In this document: positions 17,557 through 32,300 of the stretch, piece by piece
Layout: every line of letters begins with the position of its first letter
Position numbering within the stretch: the first letter of the stretch is position 1
DNA from: a virus
Taxonomy: Duplodnaviria; Caudoviricetes
IMG/VR virus record: IMGVR_UViG_3300033120_000868
Span: 32,001 to 96,000 of that record
Length of the DNA stretch: 64,000 bases
Reading direction: 5' to 3' (one strand)
Made by a program: the position numbers and the translations under genes
Notes under the pieces: model-generated
The model's input: the letters and a program-made list of their open reading frames with translations, nothing else
Database searches by the model: none
What the model was told of the DNA's origin: nothing

Positions 17557-17885
17557 TGAAAGCACTTTTATACTTAGCAACCTTAATAAGTATAATTACA
17601 TATTCTTTTTGGCAACAAATAAAAGATATAACTAATATTAGTGTTTTTTATATAGGAAACGCTTTATTTATATTTTTAATATGTTTTTATATTTATTTAC
17701 AAGATAAAAAGAGTTTTATAAAATTCTTATTATTTGAGTTATCCGTTGCGAATTTATTTAAAGAGCTTTTCCTTGACCCAGGAAAATTAACCTTATCAGA
17801 AGCCTTATTAATAGTTATAATACCTTTCATTTGGTATATAAAAGTAAAATATGACAAGTATTATAGAATATTGGAGAGAAATTAG
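17556..17885 (+). CDS. Multi-pass membrane protein (holin-like?)
   Basis: Three to four hydrophobic segments in 109 aa. Confidence 0.55.
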   Translation: MKALLYLATLISIITYSFWQQIKDITNISVFYIGNALFIFLICFYIYLQDKKSFIKFLLFELSVANLFKELFLDPGKLTLSEALLIVIIPFIWYIKVKYDKYYRILERN

Positions 17886-18282
17886 TTTAGCAATCGGAGG
17901 TGTAGCCTCTTTTATAATAGGAAGAAAATCAGCTAGATTTTTAGAAAAACAACAACAAGTAGATGCTATAGCAACAATGCAAAAAACGTATGACACGTTT
18001 TTGGGACATTATGATAGTCAATATGTAAAATTAGTGGAACAAGTAAATAAACTTCAGTCTGCTTTTTTGGAGTTACAACTTTCTTATGCAAAGGAAATCG
18101 AGAAGAGCGAGAACTGGGAGAAACTACACAGAGAGTTACAAATACAATATAGAGATTTAGAAAAGAAATATAATATTCTTGAGCATCAATATTTAGAATC
18201 AGAGAAAAAACACGAAGATTTAGAAAAATTATATTCAAAATTAAAATCAGATTTTGATAAACATAAAAAGTTAACTGCATAA
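17851..18282 (+). CDS. Membrane-anchored coiled-coil protein (holin/spanin-like)
   Basis: N-terminal ISLAIGGVASFIIG then long heptad coil. Confidence 0.55.
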   Translation: MTSIIEYWREISLAIGGVASFIIGRKSARFLEKQQQVDAIATMQKTYDTFLGHYDSQYVKLVEQVNKLQSAFLELQLSYAKEIEKSENWEKLHRELQIQYRDLEKKYNILEHQYLESEKKHEDLEKLYSKLKSDFDKHKKLTA

Positions 18283-18305
18283 CAACTTAAAATAAGTAAA
18301 TAAAT

Positions 18306-18878
18306 ATGACAACATTAGAAAAGATTAAAAAACTTCAATATTTTAACGGATTAAAAAATTTAAGAATAATATTAGAAGAGTTCTTCTCTTCTGTTACAGC
18401 TTTGGAAACCAATTCAGTTATTGTAGCAGAAGTTAGAGTAGATAGTAGTACAACACTAAATTCAGGTACTTTAACCGTAGGTAGAAAATATTATATCGAT
18501 AATACAGATTTACAAGCAGGTGATGATTTTACCAACGTAGGTTTTGTGGTAGAAGGGCAAGTTTTTACAGCAACAGGCACGACACCAACAGATTGGAGTG
18601 GAGAAACACCTGTAACAGAAATTATTGAAGAATACTCTGTAATATATAATGATATTGACAATAGTAATTTAAATATATCTTTAGATTATAATCCTTCTGA
18701 TGAATCTTACTTAAATTTTACAATATTGAATAACGGTTTTACAACATCAAAAAGTGCAGCTTTTACAGGTGTAAGTTCTAACTATTCTTTTACAAGTACA
18801 AACAATTTAGCAATTAATATTTCAGCAAATTTAGGACAAAATAATAAAGGATTTGTTAAAATAGAAGTTTATAACTAA
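18306..18878 (+). CDS. Putative fibre/decoration protein
   Basis: Beta-rich; DDFTNVG...FTATGTTPTDW; C-terminal KIEVYN like 25431-25889. Confidence 0.55.
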   Translation: MTTLEKIKKLQYFNGLKNLRIILEEFFSSVTALETNSVIVAEVRVDSSTTLNSGTLTVGRKYYIDNTDLQAGDDFTNVGFVVEGQVFTATGTTPTDWSGETPVTEIIEEYSVIYNDIDNSNLNISLDYNPSDESYLNFTILNNGFTTSKSAAFTGVSSNYSFTSTNNLAINISANLGQNNKGFVKIEVYN

Positions 18879-18970
18879 TGGGACAAGTAGGGCAAATAGT
18901 AATTGATTTTGATATAATGTCAACACGACCAAAAAATTTGGTAGTTGCTGACAGCTCGGAGTGGATATAA
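18878..18970 (+). pseudogene. Orphan 5' fragment of the gene at 19625
   Basis: MGQVGQIVIDFDIMSTRPKNLVVADSSEWI-stop aligns with MEIGNINIDFDVMSTRPSNLVVADSSDWKY. Confidence 0.85.
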
Positions 18971-18981
18971 AATTTTTATAA

Positions 18982-19623
18982 ATGAGCATTATAAATAAAA
19001 ATTGCGGAATCTACAAAATCACATCACCAACAGGGAGGATTTACATAGGACAAACTATTAATATTGAAAGAAGGTGGAGTAATTATTATAGCTCAATAGG
19101 GGCTAATAGTCAACCAAGATTAAAGAACTCTTTTAAAAAATATGGTGTAGAAAATCACCAATTCGACGTTATAGAATATTGCTCAGAAGAAAATTTAAAT
19201 TGCTCTGAACGTTTTTGGCAAGACGAATTTAATGCCACAAATAAAGATAATTTAAATTGTTCTCTTACTAAATGTGGTGAAAAAAGATATAAACATTCAG
19301 AAGAAACGTGTAAAAAAATAAGTGAATTAAATAAAGGTAAAAAATTATCAGAGGAAACTAAAGAAAAACTTAGAATAATAAATGCAGGTGTGAACAGCCC
19401 TTGGTTTGGTAAAAATCACACAGATGAGACTAAAAGAAAAATAGGAGATGCACAAGTAGGTTTTAAGAACCACATGGCTAAATTAGTACTTAATATTGAA
19501 ACAGGTATATTTTATGATACTGCAAAAGAGGCTGCTGAATCTTGTGGAATGCATACAGCAACATTTAATACATACTTAACAGGAAAGATAAAGAATAAAT
19601 CAATTGATTACATATACGTATAA
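18982..19623 (+). mobile_element. GIY-YIG homing endonuclease with NUMOD3-like repeats and C-terminal HTH
   Basis: GIYKITSPTGRIYIGQT, RW..Y, ERFWQ, NLN; HSEETCKKIS, LSEETKEKL, GKNHTDETKRKI; FYDTAKEAAE. Confidence 0.93.
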
Positions 19624-19624
19624 A

Positions 19625-20167
19625 ATGGAAATAGGAAACATAAATATAGATTTTGACGTTATGTCAACAAGACCTTCTAATTTAGTTGTGGCTGACTCAT
19701 CAGATTGGAAATATTCAATTAACTTACCCTCTTATTTATTAGTAAAAATACCAGGTTCAAAAAAATTTAAAACATTCCCATTTAAAAAGAATGCTTTAAA
19801 TAGACTAAACTCTCACTTATTAGGACTCAGTTGTTTTAAAGATGATTGTGGAGATGAAGTTTTTATTTCAATACCTGATGGTATATACACAATTTGTGTT
19901 AAGTCAGGATATGAAGGAATTGAAAACACTAAATTTTATTTAAAAACAGACCTTTTCAAGCAAGAATTTGCAAAAGTGATGGTAAAGTATGACTTAGAAT
20001 ATAAAGATGAAGGAAAAATTTTCTTAGAAGAAATGATGTTTATAAAAGGAATTGTATCTGTAGCTGAAGCACATGCTCACCAAGGTGATTTTGTAAAAGC
20101 TCAGAGATTCTTTGAACAGGCAAAAAAACTATTAAACAAACGTGTAGAATGTAATAATTGTATATAA
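19625..20167 (+). CDS. Structural protein (tail hub-like)
   Basis: ATG at 19625; IPDGIYTI motif, C-terminal CNNC; position in crAss-like tail module. Confidence 0.6.
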   Translation: MEIGNINIDFDVMSTRPSNLVVADSSDWKYSINLPSYLLVKIPGSKKFKTFPFKKNALNRLNSHLLGLSCFKDDCGDEVFISIPDGIYTICVKSGYEGIENTKFYLKTDLFKQEFAKVMVKYDLEYKDEGKIFLEEMMFIKGIVSVAEAHAHQGDFVKAQRFFEQAKKLLNKRVECNNCI

Positions 20168-20502
20168 TGTCACAACAACAAATAAATAGAATTTCAGCGG
20201 AAAAATATTTAGAAAAAGCAAACATCACTTTACTAAGAGAAGCTGACTTATACTACCTTGAAGAGCACTTCATGTTGGAGACAAAATACAATAAAAATAA
20301 ATTCTTACATGCACAATTATATAAGGATATTTTATGTACAGATGATTGTGAAGTTTTAAATTGGGTAGATAGAAAAATAAGAGGAAAATTAGAAGGTAAA
20401 ATAAAACTTTCAAAAAATAAAAAAATTCAACCAAATACACCTGACATTATTATAAATAATTATTATAATTTAGAGGCAAATTACGAGGATGTTCAATGGT
20501 AA
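20167..20502 (+). CDS. Structural protein (second hub-like subunit)
   Basis: Coupled to previous stop (TAATG); MSQQQ... Confidence 0.5.
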   Translation: MSQQQINRISAEKYLEKANITLLREADLYYLEEHFMLETKYNKNKFLHAQLYKDILCTDDCEVLNWVDRKIRGKLEGKIKLSKNKKIQPNTPDIIINNYYNLEANYEDVQW

Positions 20503-22454
20503 CAGATACACCTATAAAAATACAGATTGTAAAGTCATTATCTAATTTAAAACCTAGTCGAATGATTGCGGTTAAAGCAGATAATGAAAGTAGCTTTTCT
20601 TTATTTGTAACTGATAAAAACGGAGTACCTTACCCTTTAAAAGACTTACAAGGTAGTGGTGGAATAACAGGAATAACAAACACAGATGGAAATTTAGTAA
20701 TTACAGGAGTAAATAATAAAGTAATTAATATTACTCCTACTTTACTATCTGTAATAAACTCTGCTTTACAAAGTGGAGACCTAATTTCTACATTAGTTAA
20801 TGATGCAGGTTATTTAACAACTTTTACAGAAACAGACCCTATTTTTCAGGCTTCTGAAGCAAGTAATTTTGTTGCTGGAGATAAAAATAAATTAGATAAT
20901 CAAAGTGGGGTTAACAGTGGAGACGAAACAACTTCTAGTATACAAACAAAAAGACCTTTAAAAACTGTAAATAATGAAAGTTTAGAGGGAGTTGGAAACT
21001 TACAAATAGATTATAATAGTTTAAGTAACATTCCAAGTAGTTTTACACCAAGTCCTCATTTACACACAATAAGTGAAATTACAAATTTACAAAGTGAGTT
21101 AGATGGAAAAGAAAGTGTTTCTAATAAAGGTATAGCAAATGGTTATGCTCCATTAGATATAAACAATAAAATACCCTTAATACATCTAAATGACGCTATA
21201 TTAGGTCAAGTAAATTATATAGGATTATACGACGCTAGTTTAAATGTTCCAGCGTTACCTTCAGCAACTACAAATAAAGGAGATTATTATATTGTATCTA
21301 CAGCGGGAACTCAATTTTCACTTAATTTAGAAGTAGGAGATTGGATAATATCAAACGGAACAAGTTATAACAAAGTAGATAACACAGATGCAGTATCTTC
21401 CGTAAACGGACAAACAGGTAATGTTTTAATTGATATAGATAGCAGAGTACCTTACACAGGCGCAATTCAAAATGTAGATTTAGGAGAATATCAAATAAAG
21501 ACAGGGCAGTTAGAGTTAGACCAAACACCTACTGGAGCTTTTGGAATAGGTAAAATAAGATGGAATGATTCAGCAGGAACAGCAGAGATAAGATTAAAAG
21601 GAAATAATGTAACATTACAAATAGGTCAAGAGTTAGTAAAGAGAGTTGTAAATAAGACAGCTACAAATATTAATCTTTTAGAAGCTAATTACCAAGCTGT
21701 AAAAATTATAGGAGCTACAGGTCAAAGATTATCTATAGATTTAGCTCAAGCAAACTCACATGTAAACTCAGGAACAACTATAGGTATAGTAACAGAGACT
21801 ATAAATAATAACCAAGAGGGTTTTATAACTTACTCAGGAGAGGTTAATCAAATAAACACAACAGGTAGCTTACAAGGGGAATCTTGGTCTGACGGAGATG
21901 TACTATATTTAAGTGCAACAACACCAGGAGCAATTACAAATATTAAACCATCAGCTCCAAACCACTCTGTAATTATAGGATATGTTGAATACTCTCATTT
22001 AGTAAACGGAAAGATATTTGTCAAAGTAGATAATGGACATGAGTTAGGAGAACTGCACAATGTAGATACTACAATATCAAAAACGACTTTAGTTAATAAT
22101 GATAATTTTTTAGTACAAGATTCACAAGATTTAAATATATGGAAAAAATTCACTTGGGAAAATTTAAAAAGCCAAGTAATTACACAAATAACAGATAATG
22201 AAGTATTTAATTTTAGTTTTGAAGACGATAGTGTCATAAAAACAATTTTAAATTCCCAAATAACAAATAGTAATTTTACAAGTTTTAATTATATACCACA
22301 AGAGACTTCTGAGACAAGTTTAGATGATTTTAAATTAAACGGAGTAAATTTTAATATAGAAAATATAATTGACAACACTTCATTCGATATAAGAGCAACG
22401 GCTATAAATAATGCAAGTGGTAACTACACAATAAAATACATAGTAATAATATGA
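20496..22454 (+). CDS. Tail fibre protein
   Basis: Mosaic fibre modules: TETDPIF, HLHTISEITNLQSELD, KGIANGYAPLD, GDYYIVSTAG...VGDWII, VSSVNGQTGNV, GDVLYLS. Confidence 0.75.
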   Translation: MVTDTPIKIQIVKSLSNLKPSRMIAVKADNESSFSLFVTDKNGVPYPLKDLQGSGGITGITNTDGNLVITGVNNKVINITPTLLSVINSALQSGDLISTLVNDAGYLTTFTETDPIFQASEASNFVAGDKNKLDNQSGVNSGDETTSSIQTKRPLKTVNNESLEGVGNLQIDYNSLSNIPSSFTPSPHLHTISEITNLQSELDGKESVSNKGIANGYAPLDINNKIPLIHLNDAILGQVNYIGLYDASLNVPALPSATTNKGDYYIVSTAGTQFSLNLEVGDWIISNGTSYNKVDNTDAVSSVNGQTGNVLIDIDSRVPYTGAIQNVDLGEYQIKTGQLELDQTPTGAFGIGKIRWNDSAGTAEIRLKGNNVTLQIGQELVKRVVNKTATNINLLEANYQAVKIIGATGQRLSIDLAQANSHVNSGTTIGIVTETINNNQEGFITYSGEVNQINTTGSLQGESWSDGDVLYLSATTPGAITNIKPSAPNHSVIIGYVEYSHLVNGKIFVKVDNGHELGELHNVDTTISKTTLVNNDNFLVQDSQDLNIWKKFTWENLKSQVITQITDNEVFNFSFEDDSVIKTILNSQITNSNFTSFNYIPQETSETSLDDFKLNGVNFNIENIIDNTSFDIRATAINNASGNYTIKYIVII

Positions 22455-29318: not shown

Positions 29319-32300
29319 AAATTACACCTGCCTTTGCTAAAAGTGGAATGGATAAAGACACACATCCTTCACTATTAGATGAAGCTAAATATACCCACGC
29401 AAAAAATGCTAATATAGAGAACGAAAGCGGAGGTCTAATGAACCTTTCAACTGAGCATTCAAATATATTAGCAAGTAAATTTAAAGAAGGTTTTAGAGTA
29501 ATTCACGCTCAAAACGATATTAATTCAAATAATACGTACTTCTTTTTAGTAAACCCTACAACAGGAACAGGAGAGTTTGGAGTAATAGAAAACACTCAAA
29601 ACATTTTAGATTTAGAAGATTTAACAGTTGATTGTAACAATTGTAATTATATAAACGAATTATCTACTCCTTTAGAAAATATTAGTCAAACATCTTTACA
29701 ATCTTATACAACTTTAATATCAGATGCGTGTAAAACAGATAAAACAGAAGGTTTTAACTTTAATATTTTAAACCCTATAAAAACATCTGTAATAAAAAAT
29801 GAAAAGTTAGGTACAACTATATATTTCTCTCAAAAAGGAAATCCTCCAAGATATATAAATATAAGTAGAATAAGTGATTATTTTACTCAAGAAGTTATCT
29901 GTGGAGATGATATAACTTTGACATGTCCTGATTTTGAAAAAATGCTTATTTTTGAACCTCACTCTATACCTAAAATAGAAACCTCTTCTATTGAATTAGG
30001 AGGAAATTTAAAAAGAGGTATTTATGAATTTGCAGTAGCTTTATGTGATTCCGCTGGTAATGTTAGGTCAGAGTACTATAGTAATACAATACCTACACCT
30101 ATATTTGACCAAAATGAAAGAATCTTAGAACAGTCACAATTAGCAGATAGAACAAATTTTAGTATTAAACTAAAAGTATCTAATTTAGATACAAGATTTA
30201 CGCACTATAAAGTAGCTGTAATCCAAACAGCCGATATAGAAGGAGCTGTAAGTTATTATGAAGTAGGGGTGTTTCCAATATCTACAGACACTATAACCTA
30301 CACAACAGAGCAAGGTAAAAAGTCGACTAGTATAGATGAAATAGCAAGACCATATTTATTTATAGAAGAAGCTGAAAATGTAACGACAGCTAACAATATT
30401 TTATATCAATATGGTTTGAAACAAAAAGCTTTCTTAAATTTACAACCAGTAGTTAATTTTATGGGGGAGTTTTTTAAGTGGCAAACACATATAGCTCCTG
30501 AAAATATTTATGAAAATGGAGTACTAGCATCTAAGTTTACTGGATATCAAAGAGATGAAGTTTATCCTTTAGGTATAAGATTTTTATTAGATGGAGGTAT
30601 TGTTACACCAACATACCCTTTAATAGGGAGACAAATAAAAACAGGTGAGAATGCAGTTATTAATAATGCGGATTCACAATCTATTGTAGATAATAAAACA
30701 GCTTGTATAACAAATGGCAGAGATAAAAGATGGCAACTGTATAACACAGCTACAGTTGACGAAGGTTTTTGTGTATCAGATATAGAAACTACAGAAATAA
30801 CAGAAGAAACAGTTAGATTTTGTGAAGTAGACGATGTAGCTACAGTTAGTTCAGGAACTTTCTCTATAACATTAAATCAACCTTTTACTACTTTTGAAGA
30901 TTATATTAATGACCAAAATAATAGAGATAATTGCGTTGACACTTTACCTACAGAAATATGCTCAGTTTTAGCTGATGACTATTCTTCATACACATGCCCT
31001 GATTTATTTATTGATTTAGATTGTACGGAAGGAGTTTTAGTAGAAGGTTCTGAACAAATATTAGCTACAGAGGTTTTAAACGAAGTAGTAACAAGAGTGC
31101 AAAAGGAGTTTCCGTCAGAGTATGTGAAACTAATACCTCCACAGAATTGTAGTATTTATTACAGAGATGAGAGTAATAATAAAGTGTCTGACAATACATT
31201 TGAGAGTCAATATGATTTTAGTAGTATATGGCAAAGAAATTCAGATATTATTAATGAAGATTGCTCTTACGCTAAAGAAATTTTACAAAATAGCAACACT
31301 TCTTCAGCTACTTATGAGGCAAACTATTTTAATTATGAAGGTTCATCTGATATAGATGATTTAATAACAAGTAAAGATTCTTACGTTACAGCAACAAATT
31401 TTAATACTAAAATACATGAAAAATCTTTATGGTTTAGTTTACCTGTTACAGAAGAAGAATTTATTTTAGATATTACAAAGCAAAAAGACGACAGTTCTGC
31501 TAACGACAGTTTTGACTTACTATCACAAGATGTAAGGTTTAATATACTTAAATCTTGTACATCAACAGCTTCTATTTTTTCAACTATTGTTGACATGAAT
31601 AGTGGAAGCCAAATATTATTTAAAAGAAGTGGTTCTGATTTAATAGTACAAGTTGATTCAAACACGCCTGTAACAATAGTAGGAGGATGGAGTTCTTCCC
31701 AATATATAATTGTAGCAGAGTCTAAATTACTGACTAAATCAATAAATATAGGAACAGAAATAGACCCTGTTTTAGTTACAAGATATGTGATAGCTCCCAC
31801 AAAAGGGTGTTTTTCAATAAGCAAAAGACCTGTAGAAGATAAAAGAGTAGATATAACTTGGGATAATATAACATTCAAAAAAATAGCTTCTTACTCAGCA
31901 ACCTGTACTTATGAACAACCTATAGTATCTGCATGTAATGCTATACCTTATAAGAAAGGAGACTTTTCATATTGGGAGAGCGAAGAAGTTTATCCTGATA
32001 ATCAATATTTATACGATTCAAGTAATCTTATAATTGAAAGTTCTGATTTCTCAACATTACAATTAAGAGAGAAATTTGAAGACATATTTACAGAAGGTAA
32101 TGTAGAAGGGGTATACCTATTAGGAGATAATACTGATTTAAGATGTAAAAATATCCGACATTTTAAAATGCCTGATAATGAAAAAGCCCCTTTCATATTA
32201 ACCAACACATTATCTCCTTTAGCAGACAGTTTAATTTTTCCATTAGGTATAACAGTTGATGAGAGAGTTATTGTAGATTTTTTAAACATAGCTGAAAAAA

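Follow-up and report, generated by a model that had tools for sequence, protein, structure and literature searches.

Introns and inteins are usually regarded as the means by which homing endonucleases enter essential genes without killing their host. The locus considered here, in which a free-standing GIY-YIG endonuclease gene stands between two versions of the 5′ end of a virion gene (gene B), belongs to an uncultured marine phage of the Caudoviricetes (Duplodnaviria), the IMG/VR record IMGVR_UViG_3300033120_000868 (143,493 bp, 30% G+C), and was studied in a window of 64,000 nucleotides (nt) that covers positions 32,001 to 96,000 of that record. Its closest described counterparts are the mORF hybrid genes of fungal mitochondria, known for atp6 in Allomyces macrogynus and for atp6, atp9, cox2 and nad3 in Glomus sp. 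(PMC3630166). In phages, the nearest examples are the MobA / gene 60 cassette in the topoisomerase gene of T4-like phages, which deletes 55–75 nt and supplies a homologous replacement region (bioRxiv 10.1101/2022.08.31.505936, citing Bonocora et al. 2011), the “intronless homing” of the T-even Seg-type GIY-YIG elements (PMC2988022), and the gene-splitting insertions represented by mobE in nrdA and by a seg gene in gene 43 (PMC2988022). Two further precedents are the one-sided homing of the T4 td intron, in which the other junction was formed illegitimately at microhomology after resection (Parker et al. 1999, as summarised in PMC2988022), and the partial replacement of a gene by foreign sequence in Tremella mitochondria, which left an N-terminal duplication and was linked to intron mobility (as summarised in PMC8393795).

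From the comparison with related contigs, we consider it well supported that in the window a mobile cassette of ~800 nt (roughly 18970–19768) was inserted after nt 90 of a virion gene, probably a tail gene, and that the gene was restored without splicing, through the new start codon and 5′ coding tract that the cassette brings. Such a cassette would have three components, namely a leader of 11 nt, the gene of a free-standing GIY-YIG enzyme and a foreign version of roughly codons 1–48 of the target; its new 5′ tract would join the resident 3′ part by homologous recombination inside B. The features concerned are given below, with a single nt (19624) between the endonuclease stop codon and the ATG of B:

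18878..18970, + strand: stub, codons 1–30 of the resident gene; its terminal TAA would have arisen at the insertion junction
18971..18981, + strand: spacer of 11 nt, the left end of the putative inserted cassette, found in L040–L044 and L111 and not in empty-site alleles
18982..19623, + strand: GIY-YIG / NUMOD3 homing endonuclease gene, 213 amino acids (aa), assigned by Pfam and PHROGs
19625..19768, + strand: apparently foreign replacement 5′ tract of gene B, about nt 1–144 of B; the transition may extend to about nt 190
19625..20167, + strand: complete, working gene B; encodes a virion structural protein of 180 aa that is probably part of the tail
19769..20167, + strand: resident-type 3′ part of B, with 93–98% nt identity to the endonuclease-free L068 and L002

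The likeness to the fungal mORFs (PMC3630166), already pointed out in a first-pass annotation made from the letters of the window alone, proves accurate: in both cases an endonuclease gene would have moved with a foreign copy of one gene end and replaced the native end without splicing, and the native end stays adjacent as a duplicate that is closer to the relatives (there 91–98% versus 64–81%, here 88–94% versus 71–73%). The orientation is the opposite one: the mORFs substitute the 3′ (C-terminal) end and have the native copy downstream of them, while in the window it is the 5′ end that has been exchanged, with the stub on the upstream side; and whereas the fungal endonucleases are mostly of the LAGLIDADG type and often fused in frame, this one is a separate GIY-YIG open reading frame (ORF), in another frame and in a phage genome. 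By this analogy, the locus can be regarded as the phage, 5′-end mirror image of the fungal mitochondrial hybrid genes.

With MobA the locus shares a phage endonuclease placed inside a coding gene with neither intron nor intein, a replacement region (which in MobA covers its own site), and the existence of related empty-site genomes. MobA, however, is an HNH enzyme that splits its target into two needed polypeptides and requires translational bypass, whereas here the enzyme is GIY-YIG, the whole protein is re-encoded downstream, a 30-codon leftover remains upstream, and there is neither a bypass element nor a coding gap in B. The Seg elements (PMC2988022) resemble it in enzyme family, in domain layout, in their position beside conserved genes, in the co-conversion tract in the neighbouring gene and in presence/absence polymorphism, and the related contig L110 carries the canonical layout of this lineage; they differ in being intergenic and in having no duplicated piece of a gene, while the present insertion lies inside a coding region and brings a replacement gene start. 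The td case, as far as it is summarised in PMC2988022, offers an experimental precedent for the origin proposed here, in that homology on one side suffices, although there it concerned a laboratory construct with an intron and here it would be a natural product, fixed and spread. The Tremella case, in the summary of PMC8393795, likewise left an N-terminal duplication after partial foreign replacement, but was tied to mobile introns in a fungal mitochondrion. In a full-text literature search of limited extent, no account was found of a phage endonuclease whose target is restored by a replacement gene start while a stub is left behind; since the principle is documented in fungal mitochondria and partly for T4 MobA, the advance would be one of scope and clarity, not of kind.

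That the 30-codon ORF is a duplicated gene start, as the first-pass annotation had claimed, was confirmed by a six-frame scan with a B profile built from 59 homologues, which matches this ORF over profile positions 1–30 (E 4.3e-9). The stub and the downstream copy share 73% DNA identity in their gap-free part, and over the last 21 codons they are separated by ~9 synonymous and 8 non-synonymous changes. The spacings of 11 nt and 1 nt stated in that annotation are exact, and its placement of the end of the stub right after a Trp codon needs a small correction, the stop coming one codon later (Trp-Ile-stop). Which of the two N termini is the ancestral one, a question the annotation had referred to endonuclease-free relatives, is indicated by the identity of the stub to their alleles, 88% at the nt level between the window and L068 or L002 and 94% between L040 and the 5′ end of L068, as against 71–73% to the working copies; because of this difference, the stub is supported as the resident, ancestral-type 5′ end of B. 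Its homology to the empty-site alleles stops at ..TGGATATA, and the working gene start is only ~73% identical to the 5′ end of L068. The distance from the stub ATG to the working ATG is a multiple of three in the window (747 nt; 18878 versus 19625), in L040 (747 nt; 522 versus 1269) and in L045 (702 nt; 358 versus 1060), a shared reading frame that may be due to chance (~1 in 9 for two independent forms).

The working copy shows a different ancestry along its length. When B of the window is compared with that of L068, 53 of the first 144 nt differ (37%), against 26 of the remaining 396 (6.6%), and the break after nt 144 gives a maximum chi-square of 77, a value reached by 0 of 1000 permutations (p ≤ 0.001); B of L040 shows the same pattern against L068, with the break after nt 159, and in the same test the two filled alleles showed no break when compared with each other, nor did one appear in the comparison with L003, whose divergence is uniform. 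Because the break against L068 falls after nt 144, the foreign tract is longer than the 90-nt duplication, and the endonuclease appears to have arrived with a foreign 5′ tract of ~144–190 nt. With B itself full length, the diverged replacement N terminus that had been predicted to restore the gene is thus borne out. Among 120 homologues, the motif Trp-Lys-Tyr-Ser is found in endonuclease-linked alleles only, the other homologues having after the Trp a hydrophobic residue (Glu in some) and then Tyr; one further homologue, P0020, has the related Trp-Lys-Asp-Ser. Conservation among the window, L040, L045, L110 and L109 extends over the final ~60 nt of the endonuclease gene together with the opening ~27 nt of B (encoding MEIGNINI), and this suggests that both travel as a unit.

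The filled, empty and canonical states of the locus are represented among its relatives. Six further contigs (L040–L044 and P0011), which stem from separate JGI, ENA and Logan datasets, carry an endonuclease 95% identical in protein, and the stub is present in every version that has upstream sequence, with the same end (..TGG-AT[AT]-TAA), the same 11-nt spacer (9/11 to 11/11 identical in L040–L044 and L111) and B beginning 1 nt after the endonuclease stop. L111 has the stub and the spacer, followed by a 5′ part of the endonuclease gene that is 92% identical to that of the window. L068, which is endonuclease-free and whose B is 89% identical in protein, has a homologue of the upstream gene, separated from B by a spacer of 144 nt, so that the same locus is seen empty in L068 and filled in the window and L040, with a co-converted flanking tract. 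L110 has the classical free-standing layout: there an endonuclease that shares 53% identity with that of the window, and whose C-terminal DNA-binding end is almost the same, stands between a conserved 78-aa gene, whose stop overlaps the endonuclease ATG, and B, which starts 2 nt past the endonuclease stop, with no stub. The same 78-aa gene lies directly 5′ of B in the endonuclease-free L076 and L090, and in L109 the C-terminus of the endonuclease runs directly into B. The upstream gene of the stub-bearing phages (ending ..VYN) is unrelated to this 78-aa gene.

A second junction is seen in L045, where an endonuclease 65% identical to that of the window is preceded by a different stub, of 21 codons, which matches the 5′ end of the endonuclease-free L112 at 54 of 63 nt and whose TGA overlaps the endonuclease ATG. 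Duplication in a locus without the endonuclease, which the first-pass annotation had named as evidence that would speak against it, was found in 0 of the 40 distinct loci that lack an endonuclease beside B and for which 150 nt or more of the preceding sequence is available. Stubs are thus confined to loci with the endonuclease, where they take two junction forms at least.

The endonuclease gene itself is intact. The 213-aa protein matches PF01541 (GIY-YIG) with 36.6 bits for a cut-off of 22.6, PF07460 (NUMOD3) with 64 bits in three stretches, above the Pfam cut-off, and the homing endonuclease family phrog_314 over residues 3–206 (E 2e-41), and it has a helix-turn-helix-like C-terminal end. 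In an alignment with the catalytic domain of I-TevI (1MK0/1LN0), the GIY, the YIG, the Arg of ..ERRW.. and the Glu of ..SERFW.. stand in register, so that the catalytic Tyr, Tyr, Arg and Glu of the family are all kept. Between the window and L040, the proportions of non-synonymous and synonymous differences (pN and pS) are 0.027 and 0.34, a ratio of ~0.08 that points to purifying selection on the endonuclease gene. Searches with the endonuclease profile, PF01541, PF13392 and PF01844 gave no second endonuclease in the 143-kb genome, where the gene is in single copy. Inspection by eye for a CNNNG motif of the I-TevI style at a constant spacing from the junction gave no pattern shared by the alleles.

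A candidate for its target is offered by codons 10–30 of B, which in endonuclease-free alleles are near-invariant in DNA (pS 0.08–0.19); between L068 and L003, pS is 0.12 in these codons and 0.62–0.83, that is, saturated, elsewhere. The island of 60 nt is seen at L068:1071–1133 and L003:1716–1778, as well as in L002 and L069, and its counterpart in the stub of the window is 18905–18967. The endonuclease-linked copy, by contrast, is strongly recoded there (pS 0.62–0.88, including a serine switch from AGT to TCA). The island may be the target of the endonuclease, the footprint of repeated conversion, or a functional nucleic-acid element; together with the recoded copy, it would look like what is expected of a recognition site and its immunised copy, and it is from this recoding that the removal of the cleavage site in the new copy is inferred. 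L071 was observed to be without the island.

A sequence of events can be proposed in which (i) the endonuclease lineage would have lived just upstream of B in one clade; (ii) during co-infection with a phage whose upstream gene is not homologous, the enzyme would have cut the B of that phage, the endonuclease-free allele being cut in or beside the conserved codons 10–30, the putative site; (iii) the right end of the break would have invaded the donor inside B and copied leftwards through the start of the donor gene and the endonuclease gene; (iv) the left end, without a partner beyond the endonuclease, would have been joined illegitimately at or near the cut; and (v) this repair would have left the recipient's first 30 (or 21) codons ahead of the cassette. 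The insertion would split the putative site in the stub copy, and the heavy recoding would remove it in the new copy. Once formed, the stub would serve as the left homology arm and the new 5′ tract as the right one, entry then proceeding by ordinary double-strand-break repair, and with the stub as left arm the cassette could therefore home into other B alleles whatever lies upstream of them.

Several points weigh against the insertion of a cassette as it has been set out. All its support is comparative, and most of the supporting contigs are short (~1–4 kb). The codon-30 and codon-21 junctions could be one event followed by a later deletion, not two events, and the right-hand break of L045 against L112 is not significant (p=0.16). 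Finally, the working 5′ tract does not simply reproduce an allele of the L110 or L045 type: past ~9 codons it resembles the resident clade, heavily recoded, and therefore either its source allele would be unsampled or the tract itself would be a mosaic.

As regards the role of the stub, its alleles in the window, L040 and L111 differ in codons 10–30 by synonymous changes only (synonymous to non-synonymous 7:0, 4:0 and 4:0), and by our arithmetic seven synonymous changes in a row, with ~79% of sites non-synonymous, would have a neutral probability of ~2e-5. The stub of L111 resembles a mix of window-type and L068-type states. This fits what is expected if the stubs were exchanged with functional alleles and were not decaying in place. 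A possibility that we hold only tentatively is that the stub has a function of its own within a homing cassette that is self-contained and free of introns, where it would serve both as a portable left arm, matched to the near-invariant codons 10–30, and as a translational bridge that passes ribosomes from the upstream gene to the endonuclease.

The ORFs of the locus are chained by overlapping or near-abutting stop and start codons, in the window as a TAATG overlap, 11 nt and then TAA-A-ATG, in L045 as TAATG, ATGA and then TAA-G-ATG, and in L110 as an overlap followed by a 2-nt gap, and this chaining makes translational coupling of the endonuclease and the new B probable, in the window through the stub. 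Promoter-like sites occur at shuffle expectation, and the four terminator-like matches (0.7 expected) all lie outside 18878–19100, one of them at 19160–19143 on the minus strand, inside the endonuclease ORF. Another explanation of the stub is that it is itself selected, either as a small protein or as an ORF kept open to deliver ribosomes to the endonuclease and the new gene start. The ORF is indeed open in every version, the three alleles differ only synonymously in codons 10–30, and the stop/start overlaps chain the upstream gene, the stub, the endonuclease and B in the window, L040 and L045. The synonymous-only pattern is, however, equally expected from repeated recombination with functional alleles, as the mixed look of L111 illustrates, the model gives these 30 residues just two strands of the FN3-like sandwich, which would be unlikely to fold alone, and the endonuclease and B of L110 work without a stub; we therefore regard selection on the stub as unlikely, if the best placed of the alternatives.

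It could also be thought that a tandem duplication of the gene start came first, by slippage or recombination, and that a free-standing endonuclease settled later in the gap. Such endonucleases prefer intergenic gaps, and partial duplications do arise in phage genomes, but none of the 40 endonuclease-free loci has a stub, the downstream copy is not of local origin, with ~27% of its sites different from the stub and a MEIGNINI start that travels with this endonuclease lineage in other clades, and the foreign tract runs ~55 nt or more past the duplicated segment, which together leave this order of events very improbable.

Even less room is left for a self-splicing intron of group I or II, or an intein, that would carry the endonuclease with the stub as exon 1. 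Endonucleases of this family often bear the source-name “group I intron endonuclease”, a habit of annotation that speaks for an intron, as does the shared reading frame of the stub and the downstream gene, 747 nt apart. Nevertheless, the non-coding total around the endonuclease, which is in a different frame from both the stub and B, is 12 nt (11 + 1); a permissive Rfam scan of 18000–21000 gave no family even at E ≤ 1; the leader folds no better than shuffled sequence (z -1.0); no Hint/intein domain was found in the Pfam scan; and the stub ends in a stop codon. B, for its part, begins at an ATG of its own, and its N terminus is complete, being alignable from residue 1 onwards with 150+ homologues, so that joining the stub to B would duplicate 30 residues. 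The earlier statements that there is no room for an intron core and that the invasion was free of splicing are supported by these counts and by the full length of B relative to its family. An assembly artefact, in which two strain variants of the 5′ end were stitched around the endonuclease, is scarcely credible, for although the record is metagenome-assembled and L111 looks chimeric downstream, at least six other datasets, processed with different assemblers, independently yielded this order with the same junction and spacing, at 5–16% sequence divergence between versions, the layout recurring in L040–L044, L111 and the P0011 contig.

Gene B corresponds over its full length (positions 1–171) to phrog_31752, “virion structural protein”, and has 153 homologues. 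Its AlphaFold model (pLDDT 87.6) consists of an FN3-like sandwich followed by three helices, this end being TPR-like with conserved cysteines. The best two-domain structural match is to a tail assembly chain of phicrAss001, 7qol_W (Z 9.5, 144 residues aligned), and the chains of this assembly (7qol_W / 7qoj_G) are the sole solved chains that match both parts of B, generic FN3 domains reaching Z 8–9; a PDB sequence search with the B profile gave TPR-like noise only. Because of the PHROG name, the neighbouring genes and the fold match, it is plausible that B is a tail component, and probably it is one; of the description “essential tail gene” in the first-pass annotation, the tail part is thus plausible on these three grounds, while the claim as a whole was only partly borne out. 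The fold match may help to locate B within the virions of these 143-kb marine phages. The nearest named relatives of B found by tblastn, in the Cellulophaga phages phi4:1 and phi17:2 and in a crAss-like phage, are 25–29% identical, too distant to help; a blastn comparison of 17800–21000 of the window with 50,697 phage records gave no match, and a scan of IMG/VR gave none with B as a single protein, whereas profile scans did.

The block is bordered by the following genes:

18306..18878, + strand: upstream ORF, 190 aa, whose TAA overlaps the stub ATG at 18878; variable among relatives
20167..20502, + strand: gene C, 111 aa, downstream of B, an adjacency kept in relatives

The upstream ORF has ~60% nt identity to its 140-aa counterpart in L040, and its C-terminal ..VYN/..VYS ending is common to relatives; 3′ of gene C lies a gene of 652 aa whose PHROG matches are of the tail-fibre type. 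L040 and the window share 84–93% DNA identity over the block that runs from the stub to the end of gene C, against ~57–60% for the upstream ORF and the downstream tail-fibre-type gene. The flanks of the block formed by the stub, the endonuclease, B and C are hypervariable (18306–18878 and 20496–22454 of the window, compared with L040, L003 and L068): the upstream slot holds a 190-aa ORF, a 140/158-aa ORF or a 377-aa leucine-rich repeat protein, and the downstream slot a tail-fibre-type gene that is ~57% identical. This mosaic of flanks would be a setting in which a cassette with its own homology arms gained an advantage.

Some further observations concern other events at the same locus. In L111 (430–954), the first ~370 nt of the endonuclease are followed, at an A-run (window ~19345), by an abrupt switch to unrelated, G+C-richer sequence, and this contig may carry a disrupted endonuclease gene or be an assembly chimera. 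L069 (50–405) has a decayed 5′ part (~73 codons, with a stop at codon 4) of an ORF like gene C, which runs into a fragment of a different endonuclease (..KTNLIYV), and in the endonuclease-free L003 (1653–1688) ~33 nt of the same C-like start lie directly before the ATG of B; these remnants look like scars of another gain and loss of an endonuclease. A whole-gene duplication in L069 by the mechanism proposed for the window was considered and rejected, the sequence upstream of the C-like fragment not being the end of B. L002 (2–115) has a third endonuclease type (C-terminal ..KTNLIYV), whose stop overlaps the ATG of a B with an unrecoded, resident-type 5′ end, and this type of enzyme probably targets something else.

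In this context, the locus would provide a clean natural phage example of a third way, besides introns and inteins, into a gene, by means of a spare, recoded copy of the gene start. Its stages can be seen side by side: the empty site (L068), a canonical, ancestor-like layout (L110), junctions at codon 30 and at codon 21 (L045), and possibly a disrupted form (L111), and since they are preserved together, the origin and spread of the cassette become directly testable. For annotation, it implies that short “hypothetical” ORFs found 5′ of endonuclease genes may be gene stubs. It also has a bearing on phage mosaicism, because the cassette would move a piece of a virion gene between lineages. Should the stub prove to be a working part of the cassette, the endonuclease would have been freed from a conserved upstream neighbour and could hop between phages with unrelated flanking tail-fibre-type genes, and this would represent a general route by which free-standing endonucleases enter phage genes without introns or inteins.

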